Shown here in pieces: positions 12,762 to 52,543 of a DNA stretch of 55,085 bases. Position numbers and translations under genes: made by a program. Where the stretch lies: NCBI GenBank assembly GCA_017616855.1, contig JAFZXI010000033.1, positions 1-55,085 of the forward strand, read 5' to 3'. Each line of letters opens with the position of its first letter. Position 1 is the first letter of the stretch. This DNA comes from Clostridia bacterium. Lineage in GTDB: Bacteria > Bacillota > Clostridia > Oscillospirales > RGIG8002. A model generated the notes under the pieces. That model did not search any database, was not told the origin of the DNA, and saw nothing but the letters and a program-made list of their open reading frames with translations.

Positions 12762-12937
12762 GCGCGCTTCGCGCGCATGATTTGCATGCTGCGCATGCGT
12801 TCGGGAATAAATCGCCTCCGGCGATTTGAATGAAAATGTCGCACAAAGCGCGACAAATCATGATTGCGAAGCAATCAAATCATGGCGAAGCCAAATCATG
12901 CCGCTGAAAGCGGCAAATCACGCACGGCATCGCCGTG
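12762..12937. repeat. hairpin/linker array 1 (variable GC hairpins + CAAATCATG-type linkers)
   Basis: gcgcgc-ttc-gcgcgc CATGATTTG; catgc-tgc-gcatg; centre aaatcgcc-tccg-gcgattt + GAATGAAAATG; gtcgc..gcgac AAATCATG; attgc-gaa-gcaat CAAATCATG; ggc-gaa-gcc AAATCATG; ccgc-tgaaa-gcgg CAAATCACG; cacggc-atc-gccgtg. Confidence 0.85.
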
Positions 12938-13705
12938 CTATTCTTCTATTCCGAAAAATCTCAGCGCGTTATTGAAGGTTATCTCCGCGAGCTCTTCGAC
13001 GGAAACGCCCTTGACCTCCGCCATCTTTTCGGCGACGAAGCGGACGTATTTCGGCTCGTTGCGCTCGCCGCGGTGCGGCTCCGGCGCCATATACGGACCG
13101 TCGGTCTCTATCATCAGCCGCTCGAGCGGCACGGCGGCGCACGCCTCGCGGACGCGTGGGGCGTTCTTGAAGGTCAGCACGCCGGTGAAGGAAACGTGGA
13201 AACCCATATTCACGTACTCGCGCGCGGTCTCGGCGCTGCCGCCGAAGCAGTGCACCACGCCGCGCTTTACGCCGCTCGCCTTTACGAGCTCGAGCGTTTC
13301 CGCGCAGGCGTCGCGCGAGTGGATTATCACGGGCAGGTCCGCTTCCCTGACCAGCTCGAGCTGGCGCGCGAAGGCGCGGCGCTGCGTTTCGCGGTCCGGC
13401 TCGTCATAGTGGTAATCGAGCCCGATCTCGCCTATCGCGACCGTCTTCGGCTTCGCCGCGAGACGAAGCAGCTCGGCGCAGTCCTCCTCGGAAAAACCGA
13501 CGACCTCCGACGGATGCACGCCTACGGCGGCGTAGACGAAGGGGTACTTCTCGCTCAGCTCGACCGCCGCCCTCGACTCCTCCATGCTCGCGGATGGGTT
13601 GAGGATAAGCTCCACGCCCTCGGCGGCGAGTCCGCGCAGGAGCTCGTCGCGGTCCGGGTCGTAGCGCGGATCGTCCATATGTACGTGGGTGTCAAATAAC
13701 CTCAT
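12938..13705 (-). CDS. tatD: TatD-family metal-dependent hydrolase/DNase
   Basis: MRLFDTHVHMDD..., internal IGEIGLDYHY, HSRDA and ETDGPYM motifs of the TatD family. Confidence 0.85.
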   Translation of the reverse strand: MRLFDTHVHMDDPRYDPDRDELLRGLAAEGVELILNPSASMEESRAAVELSEKYPFVYAAVGVHPSEVVGFSEEDCAELLRLAAKPKTVAIGEIGLDYHYDEPDRETQRRAFARQLELVREADLPVIIHSRDACAETLELVKASGVKRGVVHCFGGSAETAREYVNMGFHVSFTGVLTFKNAPRVREACAAVPLERLMIETDGPYMAPEPHRGERNEPKYVRFVAEKMAEVKGVSVEELAEITFNNALRFFGIEE

Positions 13706-13709
13706 GGCG

Positions 13710-15281
13710 TTACTCTTTATCGGCGAAAATCTCCGCGAGCAGTTTCTCCTCGTCTATGCGGGCGAAGAGTATGCCGCAGTCCTCGAGCTCGGTGCCGGTC
13801 TGGAGCTGGCCGAAGCTCTCGAGGCGGTTCCAGTCCGCCTTGCAGTCGAATATCGACAGTATCTTTTCCGACGTCGCGGGCATGAACGGAGCGAGCAGCA
13901 CCGCGGCGTGACGTATCGTTTCGAGCAGGTTGTAGATGACGACGCCGAGGCGTTCGCGGCCTTCGTCGGTCTTGGCGAGCACCCAGGGGGCGGTCTCGTC
14001 GATGTACTTGTTCGCCCTGCCGAGCAGTTCGAAGACGGCGTCGACGGCGTCGGCGACGCGCAGCTCGTCCATCTTCTCGCAGACGGTGTGCGCGGTGTTG
14101 CGGCAGGCGGCGATCAGCTCGTCGTCCACCGGCTCGCCCGCGAGGATCGGGGTGGGCGTTTCGCCGCCGAAATACTTTTTCGTCATCGCGACGGTGCGGC
14201 TGACGAGGTTGCCGAGGTTGTTCGCCAGCTCGGTATTGTATTTGCGTATGACCGCTTCGTAGGTTATCGTGCCGTCGGCGTTGTAGGGCATCTCGCTGAG
14301 CAGGTAGAGGCGGACGCCGTCGACGGTGAAGTATTTGCAGAGCTCGTCGGCGTAGATGGTGTTGCCCTTCGACTTGCTCATCTTGTCGGTGCCGTTGAGC
14401 AGCCACGGATGACCGAAGACCTGCTTCGGAAGCGGCTCGCCGAGCGCCATCAGAATGATGGGCCAGTAAATGGTATGGAAGCGCAGGATATCCTTGCCGA
14501 TAACGTGGATATCCGCGGGCCAGTATTTCTTATACTTCTCGCCCTGCTTATCCTTGTCGACGTCGTAGCCGAGGGCGGTGATGTAGTTCGAGAGCGCGTC
14601 GATCCAGACGTAGACGACGTGGCCGGGGTCAAACTCGACCGGTACGCCCCAGGAGAAGGACGTGCGCGAAACGCAGAGGTCGTTCAGTCCGGGCAGCAGG
14701 AAGTTGTTGACCATCTCCTTGCGGCGGCTTTCCGGCATGATGAACTCCGGGTGCTCCTCGATGTGCTTTATGAGGCGGTCGGCGTATTTGCTCATACGGA
14801 AGAAGTACGCTTCCTCCTTCGCCTCGACGACGGCGCCGCCGCAGTCGGGGCATTTGCCGTCGACGAGCTGGCTGTCGGTATAGTAGGTCTCGCAGGCGAC
14901 GCAGTATTTGCCGGAGTATTCGCCCTTGTAGATGTCGCCCTGCTTATAGAGCTTGGTGAATATCTCGGAGACTACGCGCTCGTGGTCGGGATCGGTGGTG
15001 CGGATGAACTTATCGTAGCTCGTGTTCATCAGGTCCCACGTCTCGCGGACCTCGCCGGCGACGCGGTCGACGTATTCCTTCGGCGCGATGCCGGCGGCTT
15101 CGGCGGCTTCCTGGATCTTGACGCCGTGCTCGTCGGTGCCGGTAAGGAAAAAGACGTCCTTGCCGCGCAGGCGGTTATAACGCGCGATTGCGTCGGTGAA
15201 CACCGCTTCGTAGGTGTTGCCGATATGCGGCTTGCGCGAGGTGTAAGCTATTGCCGTGGTGATGTAAAACTTTTCGTTCAT
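13710..15281 (-). CDS. metG: methionine--tRNA ligase
   Basis: HIGN (PHIGNTYEAV) and KMSKSKGN class-I signatures, plus a CxxC...CPDC knuckle. Start placed at MNEKFYIT (AGAGG 10 nt upstream). The ATG at 15290 is an alternative. Confidence 0.9.
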   Translation of the reverse strand: MNEKFYITTAIAYTSRKPHIGNTYEAVFTDAIARYNRLRGKDVFFLTGTDEHGVKIQEAAEAAGIAPKEYVDRVAGEVRETWDLMNTSYDKFIRTTDPDHERVVSEIFTKLYKQGDIYKGEYSGKYCVACETYYTDSQLVDGKCPDCGGAVVEAKEEAYFFRMSKYADRLIKHIEEHPEFIMPESRRKEMVNNFLLPGLNDLCVSRTSFSWGVPVEFDPGHVVYVWIDALSNYITALGYDVDKDKQGEKYKKYWPADIHVIGKDILRFHTIYWPIILMALGEPLPKQVFGHPWLLNGTDKMSKSKGNTIYADELCKYFTVDGVRLYLLSEMPYNADGTITYEAVIRKYNTELANNLGNLVSRTVAMTKKYFGGETPTPILAGEPVDDELIAACRNTAHTVCEKMDELRVADAVDAVFELLGRANKYIDETAPWVLAKTDEGRERLGVVIYNLLETIRHAAVLLAPFMPATSEKILSIFDCKADWNRLESFGQLQTGTELEDCGILFARIDEEKLLAEIFADKE

Positions 15282-15306
15282 ATTATTCATACCTCTTTCG
15301 GTAATT

Positions 15307-16176: not shown

Positions 16177-16243
16177 CGATGTTTTCCTTTTTACCGTGTC
16201 TTTTCCGCAGCGCGGGTACAATGAGGCATAATATACAGTATAT

Positions 16244-16272
16244 ATTGTATCACATACGGATAGAATTAGCAA
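16244..16272 (-). promoter_or_regulatory. sigma-A type promoter for the DUF975-metG-tatD(-yfhO...) transcription unit
   Basis: Minus strand reads TTGCTA - 17 nt - TACAAT with an extended TG (tgaTACAAT). About 60 nt upstream of the start codon. Confidence 0.6.
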
Positions 16273-16302
16273 GAAAAAGTTGCGCCGCCCTTTTCGCACG
16301 AT

Positions 16303-16463: not shown

Positions 16464-16472
16464 CGGCGTCTC

Positions 16473-19208
16473 TTAAAGCGACTCCGTCAGTTTCGCGGCG
16501 ACGCGCAGTATGGCGAGCGCGTCCGCTACCGTTATGCTTCCGTCGCCGTCGGTGTCGCCGAGGCGCAGGTCGCGCCCGGTCGGCTCAACGAGCCGCGCCG
16601 CTATGCGCAGCGCAGCAAGCGCGTCCGCGACGGTTATCTCGCCGTCGCCGTCAAGGTCGCCGCACATTTCGTTGCCGGCAATCGTGAACTCCACGATCTC
16701 GACCTTGCCGTAAATGCGGACGATCAGCTGATATTCGCCCGGCGCGGTGAGTTTTGTCCCCGACTCCGCCGGAGCGTAGTTCATCTCCGCGAACTCGCAC
16801 TGCCCCCAAGCGGGCGTAACCCCCTCCGTCTGCGAATAGACGCCGCCGTCCTCGACACCGGAAATCACCGGCGCGGGAACGGGCTGCGTATTCGAACTGC
16901 CGCCTACGAGGGCGACCTTCGCCAGAAAGTCATCGTGTCGCAGGACGCGGCCGATATACGCCTCGTCCAGCTTCGCGGAGCGGAGCGCGGCGTCGACCTC
17001 GTCGGCGTAGTCGCCGCAAACGGGCGCGGCGTCGTTCATCGAGTTGCGCATCTGCATCAGTTTCAGCCAACCCGCCTCCTCATAGAGCACCTTTGCGGCT
17101 TTGTAGCTGAACGCGGCGTTTACCGCGGCGAACGCGGAAGCGGCTTCTTCCGCGGTAAGCGCGGTCTTATACACGCCGGCGTTGAATATCATTCCCGCGA
17201 AGCCGTCCGAGCCGTTCGACTGCTTCGCGCCGAGAACGAAGGGCGCGGTGGTCGTATACGACGGCGCGCCGGCGGACGCCTCCGCCGCCTTTTCGCCGTT
17301 CACCAGGAGCGCCGCCTTGCCGGAACCGAGCGTCAGCACGGCGTGATACAGCGCGCCGGACGCCGCCTTCGTCCCGCTTTTCAGCGTGACGAGCCCGGAT
17401 TTCGTATATACCTCGGCGCAGATGAAGCCGTTGCCGTCAATGAATATCGCGTAGCCCTTGCTCTGCTTCTCGCAACTGAGTATGTACTGTGCCGCTTCCT
17501 CGGAACCGGCTGCGCCGGCGCCCGCGAGGAAAAGCGCCTCCGCGGTGAACGCCTGCGCCGTCATCGAATAGACCGACGCGGGCGCGGAAACAACAACGCG
17601 TCCGCCGTCCGCGCAGTCGAACGCGCTCTTGCCGCAGAACTCCATCGACACGCTTCCGCCCGAAGCGGAGACGGCGGCGTTCAGCGCGGTCGCGTTGCGC
17701 GCGTCACCGGTAATGAAGTCGACGTTCAGCAGATTTCCGCCCGGCGCCGCGGCGTAGTCCGAACCCGGCGCGACGGTGTTGTAAACGAGCGGCACAGACT
17801 TCTTGCCGTAGCTGTCGACGGCGGTTATCGTTATCTCGTATTCGGTATCGCTCATCAAATAGGTCGGTATCTTTTTCGTATACTCCTTCGGGAAGTCGGC
17901 GACGCGGTCGTAAAGGTAGAAATCGGAATACGCCTTCGCCGAAGTGAGCATGCCCGACGGGATCCCGCGCACCGTGAACTCATAGTGCTGCACCATCTCG
18001 TCGTCCTGCGCGGCGGTGAAGGTCACGGCGAGCGCGGACGCCTCCTGCTTCACGGAAACCGCGGCGTCCGCCGGGAACGCCGGCGCTTCGTTCGTCAGCG
18101 CGACGCAGTCGGGGTCGTAACGGCGCAGGTGCGTTTTGTTTTCAAGGTCGGGCGCATCGATGTAGAGGTAATCCTTTATCATTTTGCCGCTGTTGAAATC
18201 GATGCGCGTCAGCCGCAGGTTGCCGTTGGCGTCCGCCTGCACGAGCATACCGTCGGAGGTCGAGTAGGATTCCGCGACCTTCAGCCCGTCCATATCGAGA
18301 TAGCCGCCTTCTATGCACATAAACGCGACGTTGCCGGGGTTGACGACCGTGAAATCCTTCTGGTATACCGTCGTATTCGTGAAGTTCGGGGTGTGGTAGT
18401 GTCCGGTGAAGGCGACGACCTCGGGGTAATCGGCGAGCACGTCGGAAACGTTATAACACGCATACCGGTAATCCGAGCACCAGGTGGTGTTCGCGATCTG
18501 CGGATGCATATAGACGAAGATATGGCGTCCGGGCGCGTCCGCGCGGGCTTCCGCGAGGGCGGAGCGCAGCCAGTCGAGGTTCTCCTGCGTGAACTCCGCG
18601 CCGCGCGAGGTGTAATAATCCATCATGGCGACGCCGATAAAATGATAGCCGTTTATCACCGCGTGGCGATTGCCCTGAAGCGGCTGCGCGGACGGCAGAT
18701 CGTTCTCAGTGTAGCAGGCGAGGTCGCCGAAAAAAGCGGACATCCATTCGGGGTGGTCGCTGATCGCGTCGTGGTTCCCGGAAACAAAGAATACCGGCGT
18801 ATCGGGGATATCTTCGTTATTCACCTTTATGAATTCGGCGGTCGTCGGCGCGTTGTATTCGAGCTCGCAGATGTCGCCCGCTATCGTAAGCGCGTCGAGC
18901 GTGCCGCCGGCGAACTTCTTGAGCCCCGTCAGCGCCTGACGGTAAAGCCGGGTTGCGGAGCTGTTATCCTCGGGCGTGATGTGGATATCCGCTATCGCGC
19001 CGAAGGTGAAGGCGATATTCGATGCGTCGAACGCGGGCGCGACGTCATTCCGAGAGAGAGTATAGAACGAGGAATCCCCCTCCCCCTGCAGCACTTCGGA
19101 AGCGGCGGGGGATCCTTCGACTCCGCGGCTTTGAGCCGCTTCGCTCAGGATGATGGGCGATGAAGCCGCGAGCGCGGCGGTAAGCATAATGGCAAGCAAT
19201 TTCTTCAT
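16473..19208 (-). CDS. secreted metallophosphoesterase - LamG/ConA-like - dockerin protein
   Basis: Signal peptide MKKLLAIMLTAALAAS. Motifs GDICE, SGNHD and FTGHYH. LamG-like region (LLVNGEKAAE). C-terminal GDLDGDGEITVADALAALRIAARL and GDTDGDGSITVADALAILRVAAKL. Paralog of 45690-48467. Confidence 0.85.
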   Translation of the reverse strand: MKKLLAIMLTAALAASSPIILSEAAQSRGVEGSPAASEVLQGEGDSSFYTLSRNDVAPAFDASNIAFTFGAIADIHITPEDNSSATRLYRQALTGLKKFAGGTLDALTIAGDICELEYNAPTTAEFIKVNNEDIPDTPVFFVSGNHDAISDHPEWMSAFFGDLACYTENDLPSAQPLQGNRHAVINGYHFIGVAMMDYYTSRGAEFTQENLDWLRSALAEARADAPGRHIFVYMHPQIANTTWCSDYRYACYNVSDVLADYPEVVAFTGHYHTPNFTNTTVYQKDFTVVNPGNVAFMCIEGGYLDMDGLKVAESYSTSDGMLVQADANGNLRLTRIDFNSGKMIKDYLYIDAPDLENKTHLRRYDPDCVALTNEAPAFPADAAVSVKQEASALAVTFTAAQDDEMVQHYEFTVRGIPSGMLTSAKAYSDFYLYDRVADFPKEYTKKIPTYLMSDTEYEITITAVDSYGKKSVPLVYNTVAPGSDYAAAPGGNLLNVDFITGDARNATALNAAVSASGGSVSMEFCGKSAFDCADGGRVVVSAPASVYSMTAQAFTAEALFLAGAGAAGSEEAAQYILSCEKQSKGYAIFIDGNGFICAEVYTKSGLVTLKSGTKAASGALYHAVLTLGSGKAALLVNGEKAAEASAGAPSYTTTAPFVLGAKQSNGSDGFAGMIFNAGVYKTALTAEEAASAFAAVNAAFSYKAAKVLYEEAGWLKLMQMRNSMNDAAPVCGDYADEVDAALRSAKLDEAYIGRVLRHDDFLAKVALVGGSSNTQPVPAPVISGVEDGGVYSQTEGVTPAWGQCEFAEMNYAPAESGTKLTAPGEYQLIVRIYGKVEIVEFTIAGNEMCGDLDGDGEITVADALAALRIAARLVEPTGRDLRLGDTDGDGSITVADALAILRVAAKLTESL
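19107..19154. repeat. GGGGATCCTTCG-[hairpin]-CGCTCAGGATGA element, copy B (inside CDS, just after the signal peptide)
   Basis: gggggatccttcgactccgcggctttgagccgcttcgctcaggatgat. Translated as IILSEAAQSRGVEGSP. Confidence 0.7.
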
Positions 19209-19276: not shown

Positions 19277-19313
19277 GCAAAAGTTGCGGTGCTCGAGATT
19301 TTGCGCATAATTC

Positions 19314-19343
19314 AAAACGGCTTCCCGATTGGGAAGCCGTTTT
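19314..19343 (-). terminator. terminator of the nucleoside ABC operon (bidirectional hairpin)
   Basis: 13-bp stem aaaacggcttccc / gggaagccgtttt with loop gatt. On the minus strand it is followed by TTTTGAATTAT. Confidence 0.75.
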
Positions 19344-19353
19344 GTTCCTTCAC

Positions 19354-19462
19354 GTCGCCAAAGGCGACAATTCATGCGCCGGAAGGCGCAAATCATGACG
19401 GCAAAGCCGTCAATTCATGCAAGCGAAGCTTGCAAATCATGCAAATCGGCTCCGCCGATTTG
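19354..19462. repeat. hairpin/linker array 2
   Basis: GTTCCTTCACG lead, then gtcgcc-aaa-ggcgac AATTCATG; cgcc-ggaa-ggcg CAAATCATG; acggc-aaa-gccgt CAATTCATG; caagc-gaa-gcttg CAAATCATG; caaatcggc-tcc-gccgatttg. Ends 2 nt from the permease stop codon. Confidence 0.85.
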
Positions 19463-19463
19463 C

Positions 19464-23268: not shown

Positions 23269-24513
23269 TTAGTTGAGTTCGGTGATGCCGTCTATGCGCA
23301 GGTTGAACGCGGGCGCGCTGCGGACGTCGGACTCGTGATAGTAGCCGTCGTAAACAACGTTGTCCTTGTCGTTGACCCAGTCGCCGTCGGTATCGGTAGC
23401 GAACGCTTCGGTGACTTCGGCGCCGCCGACCGTGAAGGTGGAGGTGTCGAATACCTTGAGCTCGCCGGACTTAATCTTCGCGATGGTCTCGTCGACCTTC
23501 TCCTGGGTGCCTTCGGCAACGGAGGTGCCGAGCTCGGTGATGGCGACGGCATCCTGGTTGTAACCCTCGGCCCAGTTGGTCGGGATGTTCTCGCCCTTGA
23601 GCGCCTTCTCAAAAGCGAACTTGTAGTAAACCTTCCAGTTGTTTGAAGCGGAGGTGAGCGCCGCATCCGGAGCAGCGTCGAGCATGGAGACGTTGTAGCC
23701 GACGGAGTAGACGACTTCGCCCTTCTTGAAAGCTTCCTGGACAGCGGTGGGTGCGCCGGCGGAGTCGGCGTGCTGACCGATGATGATGCAGCCCCTGTTC
23801 ATGAGCAGCTCAGCGGCGGCCTTCTCTTTGTCGAAATCGAACCAGCTGGAGGTGTACTGAACGTCCATGACAATGTTCGGAACGATGGACTTGATGCCGA
23901 GATAGAAAGCGGTGTAACCGGAAACGACTTCGGCGTAAGGATAAGCGCCGACGTAGCCGATGCGGATGTTGTCGCCGTCCTTGTTCTTATCGGCGACCTT
24001 GCCGGCGTCGATGAGCTCCTGGAGCTTCAGACCGGCAACTACGCCGGAGACGTAGCGGGATTCATAAACGCGGGTGAAGGCGTTGCTGAAGTTGTCGAGG
24101 CCGTTCTTGTCGGCGGTGTCGCCGGTCATGGAGACGAAGTGAATGTCGGGATTCTCCTTCGCAAGACCGAGCATATAGTCCTGATGACCGTAAGAATTGG
24201 AGAAGATGTAAGTGCATCCGTCGTTAATGAGCTGCTTGCCGGCTTCGGTAACGGCGTCGGTCTCTTCAATCTTGTACTTCCAGATAAGCTGGTCGTCCGC
24301 GATGCCGAGTTCCTTAGCGGCGTCCTTAATGCCGTCCATATGGGCCTTGGTGTAGCCCTCGGTGTCGTCACCGACAAGGATGAGACCGATCTTCAGATCG
24401 GACGTTACTTCGGTGCCGCTGCCTTCTTCGGTGCTCTTGCCGCAGGCCGCGAGCGCGAAGCAGCAGGACAGAGCGAAGACGAAGACAAGAATGATGCTGA
24501 GAATTCTTTTCAT
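23269..24513 (-). CDS. BMP-family (PnrA/Med-like) nucleoside-binding lipoprotein
   Basis: Lipobox FALAACG. KIGLILVGDDTEGYTKAH and the overall BMP-family pattern. Confidence 0.8.
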   Translation of the reverse strand: MKRILSIILVFVFALSCCFALAACGKSTEEGSGTEVTSDLKIGLILVGDDTEGYTKAHMDGIKDAAKELGIADDQLIWKYKIEETDAVTEAGKQLINDGCTYIFSNSYGHQDYMLGLAKENPDIHFVSMTGDTADKNGLDNFSNAFTRVYESRYVSGVVAGLKLQELIDAGKVADKNKDGDNIRIGYVGAYPYAEVVSGYTAFYLGIKSIVPNIVMDVQYTSSWFDFDKEKAAAELLMNRGCIIIGQHADSAGAPTAVQEAFKKGEVVYSVGYNVSMLDAAPDAALTSASNNWKVYYKFAFEKALKGENIPTNWAEGYNQDAVAITELGTSVAEGTQEKVDETIAKIKSGELKVFDTSTFTVGGAEVTEAFATDTDGDWVNDKDNVVYDGYYHESDVRSAPAFNLRIDGITELN

Positions 24514-24610: not shown

Positions 24611-25183
24611 TCAGCAGAACTCGACGCCGTTTTCTTCGCTCATCGCGCTTATCCGCGCGAGAGACTCGATACGCAGCCCTTCTTTGCGAAGTTCGTCGCC
24701 GCCGGGCTGGAACGCCTTTTCGATGACGATTCCGGCGCCGACCGGGATTCCTCCCGCCTGCAGGACGATGTCGCGCAGGGCGCGCAGGGCGCAGCCGTTA
24801 GCGAGGAAATCGTCGATAAGGAGGACGCGCTCGCCTTTGCCGAGATACTGCTTTGACACCATGACCGTGTTCTCGACGTTGTGGGTGAAGGAAAACGCTT
24901 TCGCCGTCCAGACTTCATTCGACAGATTCGAGGTGCGCGACTTTTTCGCGAACACGAGCGGCTTGCCGAAATACTTTGCGGTCAGTATCGCGACTGCGAT
25001 GCCGGACGCCTCTATCGTGAGTATCTTATCGACGTTTTCGTCTTTGAAAAGACGGAAGAACTCTTTTCCCATCTCGTCGGCGAGAAACGGATCTATCTGA
25101 TGATTGAGGAAGCTGTCTACTTTGAGTATGTCGTTCCCCTTTATGACGCCGTCTTTCTTTATGCGTTCCTCGAGCAGACGCAT
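24611..25183 (-). CDS. xpt: xanthine phosphoribosyltransferase
   Basis: MRLLEERIKKDGVIKGNDILKVDSFLNHQIDP... and the PRPP-binding loop VLLIDDFLANG. Confidence 0.9.
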   Translation of the reverse strand: MRLLEERIKKDGVIKGNDILKVDSFLNHQIDPFLADEMGKEFFRLFKDENVDKILTIEASGIAVAILTAKYFGKPLVFAKKSRTSNLSNEVWTAKAFSFTHNVENTVMVSKQYLGKGERVLLIDDFLANGCALRALRDIVLQAGGIPVGAGIVIEKAFQPGGDELRKEGLRIESLARISAMSEENGVEFC

Positions 25184-25253: not shown

Positions 25254-25263
25254 AGTTAGGCAG

Positions 25264-25326: not shown

Positions 25327-25387
25327 TCGCCCTCACTCCTTTTTCGATTCCGGAAACGGCGAATGCGCGCTCTTGAAAAGCGCTTTA

Positions 25388-25451
25388 CCAATAGTCGCAA
25401 CTGTGGCGTGCGGTAGAAACATTCGAGCCGTTACTTTCGAACCTATATTGG
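25388..25451 (-). promoter_or_regulatory. purine (guanine-type) riboswitch aptamer
   Basis: Minus strand: P1 CCAATA...TATTGG; P2 GTTCGA..TCGAAT with GG in the loop; conserved J2/3 TGTTTCTAC; P3 CGCA..TGCG with CC in the loop; J3/1 AC (C at the specificity position) immediately before P1. Upstream of xpt. Confidence 0.7.
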
Positions 25452-25479
25452 TCGGTCGGTATTGATTTTCTATGTTTAT

Positions 25480-38486: not shown

Positions 38487-38769
38487 GCTCGGCTTGCGCC
38501 GAGCATGATTTGAGATCCCGGCTCGGCTTGCGCCGAGCATGATTTGCAAGCGCGGGGCGCTTGCATGATTTGAACGCTCCGCGTTCATGATTTGGCTTCG
38601 CCGTGATTTGTCGCGCAATGCGCGACATGATCGTTCAAATCGCCGCAGGCAATTTGTTCCTTCATGCACCGAAGGTGCAAATCATGCGCCGCAGGCGCAA
38701 ATCATGGCGGCGCAGCCGTCAATTCATGCGGCGAAGCCGCAATTCACGCAAACGCGCAACGCGCGTTTG
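38487..38769. repeat. hairpin/linker array 3 (largest; strand flip at 38636-38656)
   Basis: About 16 hairpins. The left arm uses (C)ATGATTTG linkers and the right arm uses CAAATCATG/CAATTCATG linkers. Fills the whole rnfB-to-next-gene spacer. Confidence 0.9.
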
Positions 38770-38770
38770 C

Positions 38771-45639: not shown

Positions 45640-45689
45640 GTATTATGTAAAAATATCTCACCCTGCGGGTGACGGAAAGGACGTTTTAT

Positions 45690-48467
45690 ATGAAAAGACT
45701 CATCTGCGCAATTCTTTCACTTTGCATAATAGCCGCGGCGGTTCCCGCCTTCTTCGCCGGCGCGAAGAACATCGACCCCGGCACCGACGTCTCGGAGCAG
45801 CCGCTGTTCCGTATCGGCATAATGAGCGACCACCAGATGAACAACACGACCGGCGAAAACGCCGAGGCGCTCATCGCCGCGCTCAACGACTTCCACAACC
45901 GCGGAGTCGACGCCATCATCGAGGCGGGCGACATCGCCGACAGCAACCCGGAAACGATTTATACTTTCTATAAGCAGAAGTACAGCGAGATCATCGGCGA
46001 CGACGTCCCGCTGATAAGCGTCCCCGGCAACCACGACGTCTGGAGCGACAACTCGCTTGATATCTACCGCAGCTTCTTCGGCGAGACGAACAAGCACGTC
46101 GTCGTCGGCGGCTACCACTTCGTCGTGATTTCCGCCAACGGCAATCTCGGCACCGCCACCAACGGCAACTACGGCGTCGCCGAAAAGAACTTCGCGCGCA
46201 CCGAGCTCGCGGCCGCCGCCGCGGACACCCCCGCGGGACAGCCGATATTCGTCATCACCCACCAGCACATTTCCAACACCGTCTACGGAAGCGGCCCGAA
46301 CGCCAACTGGGCGAACGACTTCCTCTGGGGCATCATAGACAACTATCCCAACGCCGTCCACTTCTCCGGACACTCCCACTTCGTGCTTGAGGACGAGCGC
46401 TCGATATGGCAGGGCGATTTCACCGCGATCGGCACCAGCTCGATGGCGTATACCGAGCTTGAGTACGGCAAAGCCAACGGCTCCGTGCCTCCGGAGGCCT
46501 CCCTCGCGAAGCAGTATCTCTATCTGACGATCTATTCCGACCGCATCGAGATCGAGCGCATCAAGGCCGCGACGGGCAAAAAGATAAAGGATAACTGGGT
46601 GCTCGACCTGCCGCTTCAGAAATCCACCTTCAAATACACCGACGCGCGCGCGAACGACCGCATCGCCCCCTGGTTCGAGGAAGGCGCTTCCGCCGAAGCG
46701 GAAATGATAGGCAACGACATCCGCGTAACCTTCGACGCCGCGAAGCATAACGACTTCGTCCACTCCTACGGGCTGAAGCTCTATAAGAACGGCTCCTCCT
46801 CGCCCATCAAAGACATTCTGCTCTTCTCCGACTTTTACAAGGGTCTGGAGAATATGGCGAAAACCGTAAGCTGGAACTTCGACGGCGTCGCGGAGGAATA
46901 CGCTCTATACCGCCTCGAAATAACGCCTATCGAGTCATTCGGCAAGAAAGGAACTCCGCTCGTCTACGAATTCGCGAGCGTCAAGGCGCTGAGCGTCCAG
47001 CCGATGACGCGCGGCAAGCTCTACACCGTCGACTTCGCGACGGGAGAAGCGCGCAACGCCGTCAGCAACCTCGAAGTCAAACGCACCGGCGGCAGCGTCG
47101 AAAAGATCGGCGGCAAGTACGCCTACGTCCCCTCCGACGGCTCCCGTCTGACCGTGACGATGACCAACTCCTACTACACGCTTACGCTGAAGAAGCTGAC
47201 GCTTGAAGCGGCGTTCGTCACCAACGGCTTCGGCGCCGATCAGATCATCGCGTCCTGCTACTCCAACGGCGGCGTCAAGCTCTGGATAGACGCCGAAGGC
47301 AAGCTCCGCGCGACCGCGGTCAATTCGAGTAAGGCAGACGTCGAGGCCGTCAGCGAAGGCGCCGTTCCGCGCGGCGAGGTCTGCACCGCCGCCGTCACCT
47401 ACGACAACAGCGCGCTGAAGCTCTGGCTCAACGGCGAGCAGGTCGGTTCCGCCGCGATGTCCAACAAGATAAGCTACAACACCTCCGCCAAATACGGCAT
47501 CGGCTCCGCCGCGAACGGCGACAGCCCGCTCAACGGCGCGGTCTTTACGGCAAGCTTGCACTCCTCCGTGTTCACCGCGGACGAAATCAAAGCGATGCAC
47601 GACGCCCTCGCCAACGGCGATGACGTCAAGGTGATGCTGCCCGTCCTCGAGCAGCTCCGCCGCTCCGAGCTCCTCGCCGCGGCAAATCCGGGCAACGCCG
47701 TCATACTCAAGATACTCGATTACTATAACACCGAACTGAACGCGCTCGTCGATTCCGCCTACGTCACGCCCGAAATCATCTCCAAGGCGATCGCCTACCG
47801 CGACCTCGACGCCGACGTAACGAACACGAACGCCTCCAACCTCCCCTCCTACACGCAGCCGGCGATAGGCGGCGTTGCCCACGGCGACAGATACGACGTA
47901 TCCGCCGGCGAAGCACCCGCCCCGACCTTCACGAACGCCGAAACCGTCCTGCTCGACGGCGAGCCCTATACCGAGGGCTCCCCGATAGGCGAAGGCAAAC
48001 ACACCCTGCTCGCGTATAACGGCTGGCGCATGGACGGCGTGCAGTTCGAGGTCTACGACAGCACCTACTTCGCGCCGGTCGTCTACGGCGTCGAGGACGG
48101 AAAGACCTACGACGTTACGAAAGAGGAGGCCCCCGCGATAACCTGGGAGCCCGCCGAACTGACGGCGCAACTCGATAATCAGCCCTACGCCGCCGGAACG
48201 CCGGTGACCGCGGACGGCTGGCACGTATTCATGCTCTCCGACGGCAAGACCACGCTGGTCTACGCCTTCAAGATCGAGCACTCCGTCAAGGGCGACCTCG
48301 ACGGCGACGGTGAAGTCACCGTTTCCGACGCGCTCCGCGCTCTGCGCATGGCGGCGCAGCTTATCGACTCCGACGAAGCCGCCGACGTTGACGGCGACGG
48401 CGAGGTTACCGTCGCGGACGCGCTGGCTATGCTGAGAGTCGCCGTCGGACTGGTCGAAACGCTGTAA
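45690..48467 (+). CDS. secreted metallophosphoesterase - LamG-like - dockerin protein (paralog of 16473-19208)
   Basis: Start at MKRLICAILSLCIIAAAVPAFFAGA (GAAAGGA SD). Motifs GDIAD, PGNHDVW and FSGHSHF. LWLNGEQVGS LamG-like region. C-terminal GDLDGDGEVTVSDALRALRMAAQL and DVDGDGEVTVADALAMLRVAVGL. Confidence 0.85.
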   Translation: MKRLICAILSLCIIAAAVPAFFAGAKNIDPGTDVSEQPLFRIGIMSDHQMNNTTGENAEALIAALNDFHNRGVDAIIEAGDIADSNPETIYTFYKQKYSEIIGDDVPLISVPGNHDVWSDNSLDIYRSFFGETNKHVVVGGYHFVVISANGNLGTATNGNYGVAEKNFARTELAAAAADTPAGQPIFVITHQHISNTVYGSGPNANWANDFLWGIIDNYPNAVHFSGHSHFVLEDERSIWQGDFTAIGTSSMAYTELEYGKANGSVPPEASLAKQYLYLTIYSDRIEIERIKAATGKKIKDNWVLDLPLQKSTFKYTDARANDRIAPWFEEGASAEAEMIGNDIRVTFDAAKHNDFVHSYGLKLYKNGSSSPIKDILLFSDFYKGLENMAKTVSWNFDGVAEEYALYRLEITPIESFGKKGTPLVYEFASVKALSVQPMTRGKLYTVDFATGEARNAVSNLEVKRTGGSVEKIGGKYAYVPSDGSRLTVTMTNSYYTLTLKKLTLEAAFVTNGFGADQIIASCYSNGGVKLWIDAEGKLRATAVNSSKADVEAVSEGAVPRGEVCTAAVTYDNSALKLWLNGEQVGSAAMSNKISYNTSAKYGIGSAANGDSPLNGAVFTASLHSSVFTADEIKAMHDALANGDDVKVMLPVLEQLRRSELLAAANPGNAVILKILDYYNTELNALVDSAYVTPEIISKAIAYRDLDADVTNTNASNLPSYTQPAIGGVAHGDRYDVSAGEAPAPTFTNAETVLLDGEPYTEGSPIGEGKHTLLAYNGWRMDGVQFEVYDSTYFAPVVYGVEDGKTYDVTKEEAPAITWEPAELTAQLDNQPYAAGTPVTADGWHVFMLSDGKTTLVYAFKIEHSVKGDLDGDGEVTVSDALRALRMAAQLIDSDEAADVDGDGEVTVADALAMLRVAVGLVETL

Positions 48468-48479
48468 GAAAATGAATTG

Positions 48480-48684
48480 CTCGCCTTACGGCTCGCATGA
48501 TTTGGCTTCGCCGTGATTTGATTGCTTCGCAATCATAATTTGCCGCCGCAGGCGGCATTAAGGAACAAATTGCCGCAGGCAATTTGAACAATTATGTCGC
48601 GCGGGGCGCGACAAATCATGCGCCGCAGGCGCAAATCATGACGTCAAAGACGTCAAATCATGCAAGCGCGGCTTGCAAATCATC
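48480..48684. repeat. hairpin/linker array 4 (centre hairpin 48566-48586)
   Basis: Left arm with CATGATTTG/GTGATTTG/CATAATTTG linkers. Centre caaattgcc-gca-ggcaatttg + AACAATTATG. Right arm tcgcgc-ggg-gcgcga, cgcc-gca-ggcg, acgtc-aaa-gacgt, caagc-gcg-gcttg, each followed by CAAATCAT(G/C). Confidence 0.9.
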
Positions 48685-48726
48685 GGCATACATCCTCACT
48701 CTGCAACGAAAGGAAAACACAACCTT

Positions 48727-50112
48727 ATGCTCAACGACATCATAACCCCGTTCCGCGCCGGTTTCGCTTCCGACGCGCACACCGAGCTGCGCCTGCACCG
48801 CAACACGAGGCGCGGAGTCGCACTGCTTTCCGGCAGCCTCGTAAGCAACGAGCGCACCGAACATTCCGGCGTTTCCGCCCGCGTCTACCGCGGCGGCGTA
48901 TACGGTCTCGCCGCAGACAGCGGCGCCGATCCCGAAAGCATCACCGCCGTCCTCAAAGCCGCGGATGAAAACGCGCGCTTCATGAACTCCCGCGCCGGAC
49001 GCGGCAAGCCCGCGCTCCCCGCGCTTGAAGGCGGCAGCATCGACTCCGCGAAGCCCTACGACGACGTCCCGCAGAGCGTGATGATTGAGTTCGCCAAGCA
49101 GCTCGACGACTATATCGTCAAGAACTGCCCGAAGCTGACCAGCCGCTACGTTACGGTCCGCTGCGACTCGATGGAGAAGCTGCTTCGCGTCGATAACGGC
49201 TTCGACAGCCACTCGCTGATGCCGCGCTCCTTCATCTACCTCGACTTCTCCGCCGAGACCGATGCCGGCGTCACCGTCGAGCTATACGACGTGACCGGCG
49301 GTTACGGCGGCTTCGCCGACAACTTCACCGATCCGGCGCTGCTCTACCCCTTCGTCGACCGGCTCTACAAGCGCATAATGGAGAAGCGCGAGGGCGTCTA
49401 CGCCGACGCCGGAGAGCGCACCTGCATACTCGGCGCCGAGGTCGCGGGCATCCTTGCCCACGAAGCGGTCGGACACACGACCGAAGCCGACCTCGTGCTC
49501 GGCGGCTCCGTCGCCGGCCCGAACCTGCACAAGCGCGTCGCTTCCGACAAGATAACCCTCGTCGACTACGCGCACACGACCCCGCAGGGTGTTGCTCCGC
49601 TGCCGATCTACGTCGACGACGAAGGCACCCCCGCCTCCGACGAGCTTATCATCGACAAGGGCATCCTCGTCGGCTACATGAACAGCCGCGAGACCGCGCA
49701 GCACTTCGGCATGACGCCGCACGGCAACGCGCGCGCCTACTCCTTCATGGACGAGCCGCTGATTCGCATGCGCAACACCGCGATCCTGCCCGGCACGGAC
49801 AAGCTCGAGGATATGATTGCCTCCGTCGACGACGGCTACTACTTCATGACGACGAACAACGGCCAGGCGGATACGACCGGCGAATTCATGTTCGGCATCC
49901 CCTTCGGCTACGAAATCAAAAACGGCAAGCTCGGGCGCGCGATACTCGATACTACGATCACCGGCGTCGCCTTCGAGATGCTGAAGACCGCGGATATGGT
50001 CTCCGACCGTATGGACTGGACCTGCTCCGGTATGTGCGGCAAAAAGCAGCCGATGCCGGTCGGAATGGGCGGCCCGGATATCCGCTGCCGCATAATGGTT
50101 GGAGGTAGATAA
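48727..50112 (+). CDS. tldD: TldD-family metalloprotease
   Basis: Start trimmed to MLNDIITPF (AAAGGAAAA SD). HEAVGHTTEAD zinc motif. Confidence 0.85.
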   Translation: MLNDIITPFRAGFASDAHTELRLHRNTRRGVALLSGSLVSNERTEHSGVSARVYRGGVYGLAADSGADPESITAVLKAADENARFMNSRAGRGKPALPALEGGSIDSAKPYDDVPQSVMIEFAKQLDDYIVKNCPKLTSRYVTVRCDSMEKLLRVDNGFDSHSLMPRSFIYLDFSAETDAGVTVELYDVTGGYGGFADNFTDPALLYPFVDRLYKRIMEKREGVYADAGERTCILGAEVAGILAHEAVGHTTEADLVLGGSVAGPNLHKRVASDKITLVDYAHTTPQGVAPLPIYVDDEGTPASDELIIDKGILVGYMNSRETAQHFGMTPHGNARAYSFMDEPLIRMRNTAILPGTDKLEDMIASVDDGYYFMTTNNGQADTTGEFMFGIPFGYEIKNGKLGRAILDTTITGVAFEMLKTADMVSDRMDWTCSGMCGKKQPMPVGMGGPDIRCRIMVGGR

Positions 50113-50113
50113 A

Positions 50114-51418
50114 ATGAATAAAGACAAACTGAACAACGCTGCCGAATACGCGCTTCAGGCGCTGAAAAACGCCGGCGCGGAAAAAGCGAAGGCCACCGTC
50201 TTCGGCGGCAGCACCACTGAATTCAATATTGACGGCGGCGAGTTCTCGCTGATGCGCACAATCTTCAACGAGGGTCTCGGCGTCGACGTCATAACCGGCG
50301 GACGCAAGGGGGCCGCCTCCACGAACGCGATCGACCGCGAAAGCATCGACGGCGTAGTCGCCGACGCGATGACCGCTGCCGAAAGCGGCGAGCCCGATCC
50401 CGCATGGGACATCGCCCCTTATGCTGAGCCGCGCGACTTCCCCGGCGGCGTGCTCGAGTTCGACAAGGACGCGCTTTTCGACGCCGTCCGCAAGCTTAAG
50501 GACGACATCGCGAAGGGCTGGCCGAACATCCTCATCGAACAGCTCATCGCCTCCTACCACCGCGATTACAGCGTGAAAATGAACTCCAACGGCGTCTGCT
50601 ACACCGGCGAATCCGGCCGCTACGAGGTCGGGCTGATGTTCTCCGCTCACGAGGGAGATAAGGCGTCCTCCTTCTTCGGCAGCGGCGTCCGCTTCACCGA
50701 TCCGACGCAGCCGCTTATCGACATGGGCTCGATACGTGCCGACCTCGACGCCGTCGCTAAGCAGGTCGACCCGCGCACCTTCGAGGGCAAGTTCGACGGC
50801 ACGCTCGTGCTGACGCCCGCGATGTTCGGTGAGTTTATCTACCTCGCGATGGGCAACTTCACCTCCGACGGCGTGATAATCGAGGGCACCTCGCCCTGGA
50901 AGGACAAGCTCGGCAAGCAGGTAGCGGACCCGCGGCTGAACGTCCGCGTCGCTCCGCTCGATCCCGCGATCGTCTGCGCCGAACGCGTCACCGGCGACCT
51001 TTTCGTCAGCGAGGACTACGACTTCATCAAGGACGGCGTACTGCAATGCTTCCCGCTCTCGCTCTACGCCTCCAACAAGACCGGCTTTGACCGCGCGAAA
51101 AACTCCTCCGGCGCGCTGATCGTCCCCGCGGGCGACCGGTCGCTCGACGAAATCATCGCCGGTATCGACAAGGGACTGCTGCTCGGACGCTTCTCCGGCG
51201 GACAGCCCGGAACGAACGGAGACTTCTCCGGCGTCGCCAAAAACAGCTTCCTTATCGAAAACGGCAAGGTCACCGACGCCGTCAGCGAGATAATGATAAA
51301 CGGCAACCTCGCCGACGTCCTGATGAACCTGCGCGGCATTTCCCGCGAACGCGTCGCCGACGGCGGCACCGTGCTGCCCTACGCCGCGTTTGACGGAGTA
51401 ACCGTGACGGGAAAATAA
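50114..51418 (+). CDS. pmbA: PmbA/TldE-family protein (TldD partner)
   Basis: Start at MNKDKLNNAAEYAL, 8 nt after GGAGG. Homologous fold to TldD but without the HExxxH motif. Confidence 0.8.
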   Translation: MNKDKLNNAAEYALQALKNAGAEKAKATVFGGSTTEFNIDGGEFSLMRTIFNEGLGVDVITGGRKGAASTNAIDRESIDGVVADAMTAAESGEPDPAWDIAPYAEPRDFPGGVLEFDKDALFDAVRKLKDDIAKGWPNILIEQLIASYHRDYSVKMNSNGVCYTGESGRYEVGLMFSAHEGDKASSFFGSGVRFTDPTQPLIDMGSIRADLDAVAKQVDPRTFEGKFDGTLVLTPAMFGEFIYLAMGNFTSDGVIIEGTSPWKDKLGKQVADPRLNVRVAPLDPAIVCAERVTGDLFVSEDYDFIKDGVLQCFPLSLYASNKTGFDRAKNSSGALIVPAGDRSLDEIIAGIDKGLLLGRFSGGQPGTNGDFSGVAKNSFLIENGKVTDAVSEIMINGNLADVLMNLRGISRERVADGGTVLPYAAFDGVTVTGK

Positions 51419-51420
51419 CG

Positions 51421-51666
51421 GCGCGCCGCAGGCGCGCATGATTTGCTCGCCCGACGGCTCGCGTGATTTGGCTTCGCCATGATTTGCGCCTGCGGCGCAT
51501 GATTTGCACCTTCGGTGCATTATTGAGCAAATTGCCGCAGGCAATTTGAACGATCATGTCGCGCGAGGCGCGACAAATCATGATTGCGGAGCAATCAAAT
51601 CATGAACGCGAAGCGTTCAAATCATGCAAACGGCAGACCGTTTGCAAATCATGCACGCGAAGCGTG
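51421..51666. repeat. hairpin/linker array 5 (centre hairpin 51528-51548)
   Basis: Five hairpins with (C)ATGATTTG/GTGATTTG linkers. Centre caaattgcc-gca-ggcaatttg + AACGATCATG. Then five hairpins (tcgcgc-gag-gcgcga, attgc-gga-gcaat, aacgc-gaa-gcgtt, caaacgg-caga-ccgtttg, cacgc-gaa-gcgtg) joined by CAAATCATG linkers. Confidence 0.9.
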
Positions 51667-51682
51667 CTAAAGGAGACGACCC

Positions 51683-52381
51683 ATGAAAAACCGCAAACTT
51701 ATCTTCGCCGTTATCGCGCTGCTGCTCGCCGCGGCGCTGCTGCTCGGCGCCTCCGCCTGCGACCGCATCGTCGGGCCGCGCGGAAACAATAACGCCAACG
51801 CCAACAAAAACAACGGCTCCGAAAGCACCGATGACCCGCGCTACGTCAAGCAGGCGGGCCAGGGAATGAGCGAATATGACATCTATAACCGTTTCGAAAC
51901 CTACTGCACTCCCATGTGCTTCGCCATCGAGTATTACGGCGGCAAGGGGCTCGACTACGTCGCCGGGCAGGAGATCGAGCTCGACGGACACACCTGGGCG
52001 CCGAGCGCGCTCGCGATGTTCGACACGCTCGAAAGCATCGAAAGCTACGTCGATATGTTCTTCACCGGCGGCTTCCTGAAGGATCTGCGCACGACAGCGG
52101 GCATGGAGGGCGACGAATACGCTCCCCGCTACCGCGACGTCGACGGCAAGCTCTACGTCCGCACCGACGAGCCGAACGAATCGCTGATGTTCAGCATCAA
52201 CCTCGACACCTTCACAATCGTCTCCAACACCGAGGAGGAGATAAAGTTCACCGTCGACGCGACGCTTAACGGCGGCCTTTACGAGCTGCGTATCATCATG
52301 TCCCCCGTCGGCGAAAGCGGCTGGAAGATAAGCTACTGGTATCCGGAACCGAAGGATTCGAGCTCGGAAAGCTCGAATTAA
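51683..52381 (+). CDS. lipoprotein of unknown function
   Basis: Lipobox LLLGASAC, AAGGAG SD. No recognisable domain. Confidence 0.75.
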   Translation: MKNRKLIFAVIALLLAAALLLGASACDRIVGPRGNNNANANKNNGSESTDDPRYVKQAGQGMSEYDIYNRFETYCTPMCFAIEYYGGKGLDYVAGQEIELDGHTWAPSALAMFDTLESIESYVDMFFTGGFLKDLRTTAGMEGDEYAPRYRDVDGKLYVRTDEPNESLMFSINLDTFTIVSNTEEEIKFTVDATLNGGLYELRIIMSPVGESGWKISYWYPEPKDSSSESSN

Positions 52382-52543
52382 TGAATACTGAAGACTGAAG
52401 ATTTAATAATGAATAATTGCGGTTCAAATCGGCTTCGCCGATTTGTTCCTTCATGCAGTGCAGCTGCAAATCATGCGCCGCAGGGCGCAATTCATGACGG
52501 CGCAAGCCGTCAAATCACGCCGCGCAAGGCGCGGCAAATCATG
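52379..52543. repeat. AT-rich module + hairpin/linker array 6
   Basis: taatgaatactgaagactgaagatttaataatgaataat (overlaps the stop codon). Centre caaatcggc-ttcg-ccgatttg (52425-52445) + GTTCCTTCATG. Then four hairpins with CAAATCATG/CAATTCATG/CAAATCACG linkers. Confidence 0.9.

Follow-up and report, generated by a model that had tools for sequence, protein, structure and literature searches.

Introduction

Gut-1 (Rfam RF01706) is a three-hairpin candidate small RNA reported solely from human gut metagenomes, supported by covariation and without an assigned function (PMC2864571). Palindromes of the repetitive extragenic palindrome (REP) type carry a GTAG or CGTC tetranucleotide tag at one end (PMC3733652). 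Tandem heptamers, that is, short tandemly repeated repetitive sequences (STRR) and TAACTGA repeats, occur in cyanobacteria, Beggiatoaceae and Bacteroidetes (PMC4679880), and that paper reports no link between them and proteins of family PF05635. The Avd protein forms a pentameric barrel that is positively charged, binds RNA and resembles "S23 ribosomal proteins" (bioRxiv 10.1101/2023.10.23.563531), and PF05635 resembles Avd (PMC10053308). Here we describe a family of hairpin arrays in a contig of 55,085 nucleotides from a Clostridia bacterium (JAFZXI010000033.1, assembly GCA_017616855.1), the whole of which is referred to as the window. It contains six intergenic arrays (A1 to A6 along the contig) with 51 short hairpin units, 42 of them distinct, which total 1,374 bp or ~2.5% of the 55-kb stretch.

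Copies of this family are dispersed, turn over between close relatives, gain and lose whole units exactly at their linkers, fold in a strand-specific manner and are physically linked to genes of PF05635. The balance of the evidence leans towards a dispersed, intergenic and selfish repeat family of gut and rumen Clostridia that resembles ribosomal intervening sequences (IVS), of which the arrays of the window would be non-coding members, acting as a single-stranded nucleic acid that is read by a trans-acting factor.

Oriented arms around palindromic anchors

The arrays are built from an oriented unit in which a hairpin follows the linker CAAATCATG (26 exact copies). As the G of the linker and the next C prolong the stem, only AAATCAT is left as the true single-stranded linker. 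Right arms consist of units in one orientation and left arms of inverted units, and both meet through a degenerate inner linker at a palindromic anchor with the consensus CAAATYGSC-nnn-GSCRATTTG; unit boundaries read ...ATG on one side and CAA... on the other. An arm comprises five linkers and four or five hairpins, and two subtypes recur. The alpha subtype shows the inner linker TTCCTTCATG followed by cacc-gaa-ggtg, cgcc-gca-ggcg, acggc-aaa-gccgt and caagc-gaa-gcttg, and the beta subtype shows the inner linker AACGATCATG followed by tcgcgc-nnn-gcgcga, attgc-gaa-gcaat and further units. In the window, AAATCATG has 26 exact copies against 0.89 expected, a count reached in none of 100 shuffles, and only one copy (at 32336) lies outside the six arrays. 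The 7-nt core AWWTCAY occurs 26.9 times per kb within arrays and 0.58 times per kb elsewhere, and about ten degenerate inner linkers adjoin the central palindromes.

An initial annotation, made from the letters of the contig, had proposed six homologous arrays with about 38 linkers and hairpin types in a constant order. All six were recovered at or near the positions it gave, 38 linkers are present at up to two mismatches, every hairpin string that it quoted exists, and the recurring orders correspond to the alpha and beta arms, with some of them on the opposite strand, in left arms. It had treated the arrays as simple series, where we find inverted arms around an anchor, and this architecture, the relation to Gut-1 and the linked PF05635 gene were absent from it. 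Some of its details have to be corrected. CATG is not in every linker: seven contain CACG/CGTG, others read CATAATTTG or CAAATCATC, and terminal linkers lack the G. Array A2 starts at 19313, with a terminator-like anchor, and not at 19354. Finally, A6 is a hairpin array in its right arm, and its left part (52382-52424) consists of five heptamers without hairpins.

Related loci (given L numbers) were chosen by the CAAATCATG pattern: a genome collection with one genome per species was scanned for three linkers in a row, which yielded at least 111 loci, and 84 of those listed are from metagenome-assembled genomes (MAGs) of Clostridia. Full arms of the window have five linkers each, the inner degenerate one included, and across the related loci four strict linkers are the modal run length (99 of 194 runs), with runs of more than five almost absent; on these grounds the arm is a fixed-length module rather than a repeat that expands freely. 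A hairpin-less form of the CAAATCATG linker was also observed inside Clostridia, in L037 (a Faecalibacterium MAG), where two-armed arrays at 597-947 and 1429-1743 show the 9-mer CAAATCATG and variants (CAAAACATG, CAAGTCATG and others) in direct tandem, almost free of hairpins.

Stem pairing and strand asymmetry

In the 51 hairpins of the window, 278 of 286 symmetric stem positions (97.2%) are Watson-Crick pairs, compared with 30.8% in shuffled sequences (maximum 39.5%), and 45 units have perfect stems. The fold of array A5 has a z score of -7.6 for DNA and -6.4 for RNA in relation to shuffles. A unit-register test on the window alone gave 96.3% paired positions versus 62.4% after shuffling and 37 double-change cells versus 12.5, values that none of 1000 shuffles matched. 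Alignment of 12 full element copies from genome RGIG4012 shows 96.7% pairing, with 15 of 45 pairs double-changed and spread over all eight helices, a result equalled by none of 500 shuffles, with 0-4 such pairs in slid controls. Among 300 distinct inter-linker segments of the 84 listed Clostridia loci and the window, 72% pair by at least 3 bp from both ends (5% when shuffled). The stem sequence of the hairpins is free, and what is conserved on the AAATCAT strand is the pairing and the C-GNA-G loop.

Triloops on the AAATCAT strand are GCA (19), GAA (15), AAA (15) and GTA (10), and their complements are found 0, 1, 2 and 0 times, respectively. The loop-closing pair on the same strand is C-G in 130 cases and G-C in 21, and G.T exceeds A.C (18 vs 7, p = 0.04). 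C-GNA-G triloops form a classic extra-stable DNA mini-hairpin. Because the structure is strand-specific, a single-stranded form is involved. The C-GNA-G loops together with the symmetry of the two arms favour a logic at the DNA level or on both strands, and the location in transcribed spacers together with an RNA-binding homologue of the linked protein favours RNA.

According to the initial annotation, copies differ by loop changes or compensatory stem changes, which it took as the signature of selection on the secondary structure of RNA or single-stranded DNA. The differences are indeed mostly of these two kinds, and the pairs it cited (acgGc/gCcgt vs acgTc/gAcgt and caagc vs caagcgc) are present. 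Compensatory changes are in excess both in the unit-register test and in the RGIG4012 alignment, the unit order is conserved and not random, and the confinement of the loop, closing-pair and G.T asymmetries to one strand agrees with a single-stranded form. The step from covariation to selection holds in part: covariation is strong, but by itself it does not show selection for a host function, since templated quasi-palindrome correction or the survival of foldable selfish copies gives the same pattern.

The same data bear on the idea that the 7-9-bp motif, repeated four to five times per inverted arm, is a double-stranded DNA binding site in an iteron-like platform comparable to parC/ParR centromeres or multi-site transposon ends. 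Inverted arms that repeat a short conserved motif directly four to five times would suit such a platform, and so would a motif that is constant across Clostridia orders while the intervening sequence changes; however, 97% stem pairing, compensatory changes, GNA loops and the G.T bias are left unexplained, six such sites occur in 55 kb, and there is no helical phasing, because the spacing of the motif ranges from 14 to 27 bp. We consider double-stranded binding sites very improbable.

Minimum-energy folds of A4 and A5 contain a ladder of four-way junctions in which left-arm linkers pair with right-arm linkers, and the flanks of PF05635 genes in other phyla, being complementary, are compatible with this. 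The ladder was rejected as a general structure because A2 has a single arm and some arrays (L004, L040) mix arms of different linker families. Separately, the RGIG4012 alignment contains a possible long-range helix of 11 bp, columns 27-37 with 112-122 (AATTGCGATCC / GGATYGCAATT), which would enclose the entire left arm; one of its positions covaries between G-C and A-T, and one copy accommodates it better than the local hairpin with which it competes.

Dispersed copies and turnover among relatives

The 84 listed Clostridia loci belong to about 35 gut and rumen species, including Acutalibacteraceae, Christensenellaceae, Oscillospiraceae and Faecousia. The linker is identical across them, and the hairpins are AT-rich or GC-rich following the host; 300 of 505 hairpins across the loci are distinct, the linker being the conserved part. 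A phage origin was considered and set aside, a viral collection having given 9 pattern matches only. In genome RGIG4012, twelve copies of ~190 nt are inserted at unrelated sites in both orientations and with sharp ends, and no target duplication, direct repeat or common target motif was found at the ends of these 12 copies.

Syntenic loci of relatives of the window organism were recovered through PmbA homologues. At the A5 site, the relative with 95% identity (L153) has the array with units 2-4 of the right arm missing, cut exactly at linkers. The array is entirely missing in two relatives with 91% identity (L148 and L154), the spacer of which contains an unrelated inverted-repeat element. Relatives with 87 and 80% identity show a two-armed array with the linker AATACCACT/AATATCACC, and the relative with 79% identity shows the alpha anchor of the window followed by ATTTCAC linkers. 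Relatives retain anchors and left arms at the A4 and A6 sites, with right arms that are truncated or missing (91% relative). Since anchors are conserved while arms differ, the anchors are old and the arms are gained, lost and replaced, with the linker changing in concert within an arm.

Two further kinds of repeat were seen in these and related loci. The first is a second, unrelated family in the same spacers of relatives (L148 5306-5466, L154 2798-2952, L112 2408-2628 and several in L151), which is a long inverted repeat, gtcattccgagcg...(gg)gatccttc...cgctcaggatgac, with the look of a miniature inverted-repeat transposable element (MITE). The second comprises other hairpin-and-linker families with the linkers TCATAAC/GTTATGA and ATATCGA and the same GAA/GCA loops (L151 2143-2613, L150 4517-4710, and the upstream flanks of L129 and L132).

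In the spacer between purL and gpmI of six Acutalibacteraceae-like species the same tail-to-tail element is kept, with compensatory changes. It is inverted as a whole in two of the six (L001, L081, L095 and L088 versus L110 and L061), and it has a variable, partly duplicated middle segment (gacagtggca...ctttac...). Orientation in relation to flanking tandem genes was counted in low-GC loci, as strand calls by the longest open reading frame (ORF) are unreliable in GC-rich loci and were wrong for three of the six window arrays; the result was 6 versus 7. Some copies lie between divergent genes.

These observations are central to the alternative that the arrays are a cis-acting RNA selected by the host. 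It would consist of stable hairpins transcribed with the operon that protect or partition the mRNA, as barriers to 3'-exonucleases or as processing sites at the AU-rich linkers, or of a free small RNA like Gut-1 or a protein sponge that displays AAAUCAU. It fits with the position of every window array in a spacer between two co-directional genes (by ORF calls and Pfam), with the ends of four arrays, at most 5-10 nt from the Shine-Dalgarno sequence that comes next, and with A2, which has a stop codon on one side and a terminator-like hairpin on the other. The array kept between purL and gpmI points the same way, as do the weak resemblance to terminators of units in the CAUGAUUUG direction and the classification of Gut-1 as a covariation-supported RNA by Rfam and Weinberg 2010 (PMC2864571). 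However, orientation towards transcription is random and is flipped at the orthologous purL-gpmI site, and one arm of each two-armed array is in the "wrong" sense, although the loop and G.T asymmetries are strand-specific. In addition, the same spacer is empty or holds unrelated repeat families in relatives of 79-91% identity, copies between divergent genes exist, and sharp-ended copies occur at unrelated loci. We therefore regard a host-selected cis-acting RNA as unlikely. On the anatomy and on scans, promoters were also discarded and arrays of terminators are improbable; the A2 anchor (19313-19344) is the only good fit to an intrinsic terminator, and other units match weakly and solely in the CAUGAUUUG direction.

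Copy structure, turnover and orientation, when combined, describe a dispersed, dynamic and largely selfish repeat family rather than a fixed regulatory site. A neutral by-product, with repeats generated by slippage and tandem duplication, hairpins kept perfect by templated quasi-palindrome repair, and neither a reader nor a function, would explain the tandem duplications in the left arm of A3 and at L048, where a 2-unit block is repeated five times in tandem, as well as the unit-exact indels at linkers. It does not account for an arm length fixed at five, for a linker that is constant across Clostridia families despite full turnover of the stems, or for strongly strand-biased loops, dispersed sharp-ended copies and a specific gene family linked across phyla, and we find it hardly credible.

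A PF05635 gene linked to the arms

One ORF in the interior of L027 belongs to PF05635 / TIGR02436 (23S rRNA intervening-sequence protein; four helix bundle protein). By tblastn, a PF05635 gene is present in 8 of the 84 listed Clostridia loci, always directly beside the arms, and its product is a four-helix bundle of 110-120 amino acids. It is the only recurrent non-housekeeping neighbour among ~650 ORFs of these loci. In L012, L067 and L097, the gene has a right arm before it and a left arm after it, with an anchor at either outer end, always in one relative orientation; these genomes also contain the same two arms only 8-13 bp apart. By analogy with a MITE and its parent, the window copies would be non-coding derivatives in relation to these gene-carrying cassettes.

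The subfamily is abundant, with 7,927 matches at E <= 1e-10 among 8,000 candidates scored. An identical protein of 117 amino acids recurs in at least five gene contexts (after purH, tuf, a permease and others), with ~215 nt of likewise identical two-armed array upstream of it. In L128-L137, the left boundary of this mobile unit lies ~215 nt upstream of the PF05635 start, at a promoter-like TTGACA-17 nt-CTCAAT, and 18 nt separate the end of the right arm, beside the ribosome-binding site, from the start codon. The closest solved structure, 2RLD, has five chains (E = 1e-24). PADLOC and PHROGs gave no defence or phage annotation for the linked protein. No paper linking PF05635 to such repeats was found in a limited literature search, which is no proof of novelty.

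A search of plasmids by tblastn placed PF05635 in Nostoc, Planktothrix, Euhalothece, Gloeocapsa, Bernardetia, Chondrinema, Treponema, Chlorohelix and Monoglobus, and thus in Cyanobacteriota, Bacteroidota, Spirochaetota and Chloroflexota in addition to Monoglobus. The gene usually lies within one operon (hsdS-hsdR, drmD-pglX, helicase-methylase, or adaptor-permease of the resistance-nodulation-division type). Inverted 7-mers are common to the 120 nt upstream and downstream in 9 of 10 loci examined (p <= 0.026), and several of these flanks are plain tandem heptamers, such as (AATTCGT)x4, gene, (ACGAATT)x4. Hairpin-less and hairpin-bearing arms are interchangeable, since the left arm of A6 and the heptamer run of L148 share anchors with hairpin arms. 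A code that relates protein to repeat was considered and found no support: in cyanobacteria, PF05635 proteins with 70% identity sit between entirely different heptamers. In four of the plasmid loci (L138, L144, L145 and L147; Monoglobus, Planktothrix, Chlorohelix and Gloeocapsa), PF05635 was seen inside restriction-modification, DISARM/BREX-like and HEPN defence operons.

The identity of the linked gene also bears on a hairpin-recognising transposase, one of the roles that the initial annotation had listed. The arrays would then be substrates, of the REP or bacterial interspersed mosaic element (BIME) kind, of a single-strand transposase encoded elsewhere (a REP-associated tyrosine transposase, RAYT, or an IS200/IS605-type enzyme), and the linker would be guide and cleavage sequence. 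C-GNA-G triloops, strand-specific structure, absence of target duplication, high copy number in intergenic positions, clusters with both orientations, and lineage-specific linker families, as expected from co-evolution with a trans-acting enzyme, are all in keeping with it. Nevertheless, the hairpin sequence is free, so that the hairpins are not the conserved part, and lacks the GTAG/CGTC tag of REP palindromes (PMC3733652); arm units are direct and not alternating, arm length is fixed at five linkers, and no Y1-transposase gene recurs beside the arrays among the ~650 ORFs. A transposase of this kind is quite improbable.

Proposed mechanism and significance

Under the reading of the arrays as selfish, IVS-like repeats, the element would act as a single strand, either as RNA read through from the flanking operon genes or as transiently single-stranded DNA. 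Once its hairpins fold, the linkers would stand exposed in a regular single-stranded row, and a trans-acting factor would read this row of five linkers; the leading candidate is the linked, putatively pentameric protein, with five subunits for five linkers per arm. New copies would arise by an insertion route that leaves no target duplication, and arms would then lengthen or shorten by whole units through recombination between the direct-repeat linkers. Copies between cistrons may be tolerated because they are compact, fold on their own and end before the next ribosome-binding site.

Several points weigh against this reading. The window has no PF05635 gene by tblastn, gene-less arrays far outnumber gene-carrying ones, and no mobility enzyme is linked to the arrays among the ~650 ORFs; to our knowledge, a four-helix bundle is not a known recombinase. 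Sequence-specific reading of the linkers by the PF05635 protein is doubtful, because the 70%-identical cyanobacterial proteins are flanked by unrelated heptamers, and the gene could be a passenger with a preference for central positions in palindromic arrays. The match of five linkers with five subunits may be coincidence or reflect common descent of the arms. The persistence of the array at purL-gpmI in six species hints at a role at the host level. Furthermore, the data fit RNA and single-stranded DNA alike, and locus frequencies are conditional, since the loci were selected by the CAAATCATG pattern.

As a broader possibility, doubtful as it stands, the arrays could derive from selfish IVS-like cassettes spread across phyla, in which an Avd-like PF05635 gene lies between inverted 7-nt arrays. 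Such cassettes would colonise transcribed spacers (rRNA helices and operon gaps), their protein would read single-strand 7-mers, and the Clostridia arrays, Gut-1 and perhaps the heptamers of cyanobacteria and Bacteroidota would be offshoots or landing sites. If this is true, the Gut-1 motif of 2010, the PF05635 proteins and the multi-phylum tandem heptamers become connected, and one binding experiment can test it.

Arrays in dozens of uncultured gut and rumen Clostridia represent a major unannotated genome component, and PF05635 proteins number thousands in gut metagenomes, with Avd as their only characterised relative. For annotation, the arrays should be masked as repeats and not called small RNAs, and they mark rapid structural turnover between close strains.

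Features of the window

Coordinates of arms and anchors and the genes next to each array are given in Table 1. At gathering level, an Rfam search of the whole window returned only a tRNA and a purine riboswitch, and no rRNA. The riboswitch aptamer, at 25372-25470 (-), scores 37.7 bits against the Rfam threshold of 37 and lies upstream of minus-strand ORFs 24611-25183 and 23269-24513. Two paralogous proteins of ~920 amino acids, encoded at 16473-19208 (-) and 45669-48467 (+), have metallophosphoesterase, LamG and dockerin domains and border A2 and A4. The gene order dockerin protein, TldD, PmbA is kept in relatives L148 and L151. A promoter-like TTGCGA-17-TATAAT at 19276-19248 (-) separates the A2 anchor from the start of the dockerin-protein gene, which places A2 in the 3' untranslated region of the upstream permease gene.

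Table 1. Arms, anchors and neighbouring genes of the six arrays in the 55,085-nt window.
Feature	Coordinates	Strand	Description
A1 neighbours			TatD to YfhO, co-directional
A1 short left arm	12762..12808	-	hairpins gcgcgc-ttc-gcgcgc and catgc-tgc-gcatg; one strict linker CATGATTTG; degenerate inner linker
A1 anchor	12809..12827	.	palindrome aaatcgcc-tcc-ggcgattt
A1 right arm, beta	12828..12937	+	five linkers (gaatgaaaatg, CAAATCATG x3, CAAATCACG), five hairpins; ends 1 nt from the TatD stop codon
A2 neighbours			permease to dockerin protein, co-directional
A2 anchor	19313..19344	.	14-bp perfect palindrome between A and T runs, resembling a bidirectional intrinsic terminator
A2 right arm, alpha	19345..19463	+	inner linker ttccttcacg, four linkers, four hairpins, terminal palindrome caaatcggc-tcc-gccgatttg (19441-19463); without left arm
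A3 neighbours			Fer4 protein to DUF4015, co-directional
A3 left arm, beta	38487..38635	-	six linkers; recent tandem duplication of the ctcggc-ttgc-gccgag + CATGATTTG unit
A3 anchor	38636..38656	.	caaatcgcc-gca-ggcaatttg
A3 right arm, alpha	38657..38770	+	five linkers, five hairpins; end is caaacgcgc-aac-gcgcgtttg
A4 neighbours			dockerin protein to TldD, co-directional
A4 left arm, alpha	48471..48565	-	linkers aatgaattg, CATGATTTG, cGTGATTTG, CATAATTTG, cattaaggaa; orthologous arm in L148
A4 anchor	48566..48586	.	caaattgcc-gca-ggcaatttg
A4 right arm	48587..48684	+	beta start, then alpha units; end is CAAATCATC; units 2-4 missing in L148 (91% identity)
A5 neighbours			PmbA to 232-aa ORF, co-directional
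A5 left arm, alpha	51421..51527	-	five linkers, five hairpins; begins 2 nt past the PmbA stop codon; orthologous arm in L153
A5 anchor	51528..51548	.	caaattgcc-gca-ggcaatttg
A5 right arm, beta	51549..51666	+	five linkers, five hairpins; ends 4 nt ahead of the Shine-Dalgarno sequence AGGAG of the next gene
A6 neighbours			232-aa ORF to 289-aa ORF, co-directional
A6 left arm	52382..52424	-	hairpin-less: five tandem heptamers tgaatac tgaagac tgaagat ttaataa tgaataa; same run in L148
A6 anchor	52425..52445	.	caaatcggc-ttc-gccgatttg; kept at the site in four relatives
A6 right arm, alpha	52446..52543	+	ttccttcatg and four linkers, four hairpins; missing at the site in L148, L150 and L151

Comparison with known repeat systems

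With relaxed thresholds, Rfam gave one match to Gut-1 in the window, in the right arm of A4 at 48608-48685 (-), with 28.0 bits (E = 0.0011 in a search of 281 nt) and an alignment that covers all 77 model positions. The Gut-1 gathering score of 50 bits was reached nowhere in the window, and no other arm within 48400-52600 matched at E <= 5. True Gut-1 matches, of 62.6 bits in L004 and 50.2 bits in L040, are contiguous with CAAATCATG arms, and the flanks of the Gut-1 seed alignment (e.g. BAAZ01000095) show an inverted second arm of AUAUCAC units outside the model. For these two reasons, Gut-1 is one arm of the same array type, with the linker variant GUGAAAU. In L151, the alpha anchor of the window is followed by ATTTCAC linkers. 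The window arrays fail formal membership of Gut-1 and belong to the same superfamily, which has the linker core AWWTCAY (AAATCAT, AATTCAT, ATATCAC and ATTTCAC). Both show three or more tandem short hairpins, a conserved AU-rich single-stranded linker of ~7 nt, DNA of the gut Clostridia type and covariation. However, window arms score 28 bits or nothing compared with 50, their linker is CAUGAUUUG instead of GUGAAAU, and inverted arms, anchor, dispersal and a linked gene, all present here, are not part of the Gut-1 description.

REP, BIME and REPIN elements are likewise high-copy intergenic hairpin repeats, often within operons and clustered in both orientations, with lineage-specific variants, compensatory stem changes and no target duplication. 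They differ in that the REP palindrome is conserved, whereas here stems are free (42 of 51 distinct in the window) and the linker is conserved. Inspection of the six arrays found no GTAG/CGTC tag on the window units; the arm units are direct and fixed in number, and the linked gene encodes a four-helix bundle and not a RAYT. Like MITEs, the arrays are short, lack coding sequence and have ends in common with a less frequent form that carries a gene; their ends are inverted (the arms being inverted copies of one module), and they vary in presence between close relatives. In contrast to MITEs, no target-site duplication was found at the 12 RGIG4012 copies and the gene-carrying form has no recognisable transposase. 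The family is also distinct from clustered regularly interspaced short palindromic repeats (CRISPR), which were rejected: the repeat is 7-9 nt long versus 23-50 nt, the spacers are recurring palindromes of 5-21 nt, and both orientations are found in one array.

The 23S rRNA intervening sequences with a PF05635 ORF (S23p family) share the protein family with the elements described here. In both, the gene lies between inverted repeats in a transcribed region that is left intact, and ORF-less versions exist; inverted flanks enclose a PF05635 ORF in the eight related loci and in L128-L137, and the window copies lack the ORF. Nevertheless, our elements lie between protein-coding cistrons and not in rRNA helices, with no rRNA in the window, and their flanks are 7-nt repeat arrays with hairpins instead of a simple stem. 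The Avd-RNA complex of diversity-generating retroelements is a model for how an arm might be read, since the linked protein is an Avd homologue; it differs in that no reverse transcriptase, template repeat or variable repeat is nearby and the binding of an arm is putative. The STRR and TAACTGA heptamers are also intergenic 7-nt runs, often ending at a start codon and with a patchy distribution among phyla, and hairpin-less heptamer runs likewise make up the left arm of A6 and the PF05635 flanks in other phyla. Clostridia arms, by contrast, place a hairpin between the heptamers and pair as inverted arms around an anchor. Structured repeats of the Gut-1 and REP-like kinds were known already; what is new is the linkage of the arms to PF05635, which makes their function testable.

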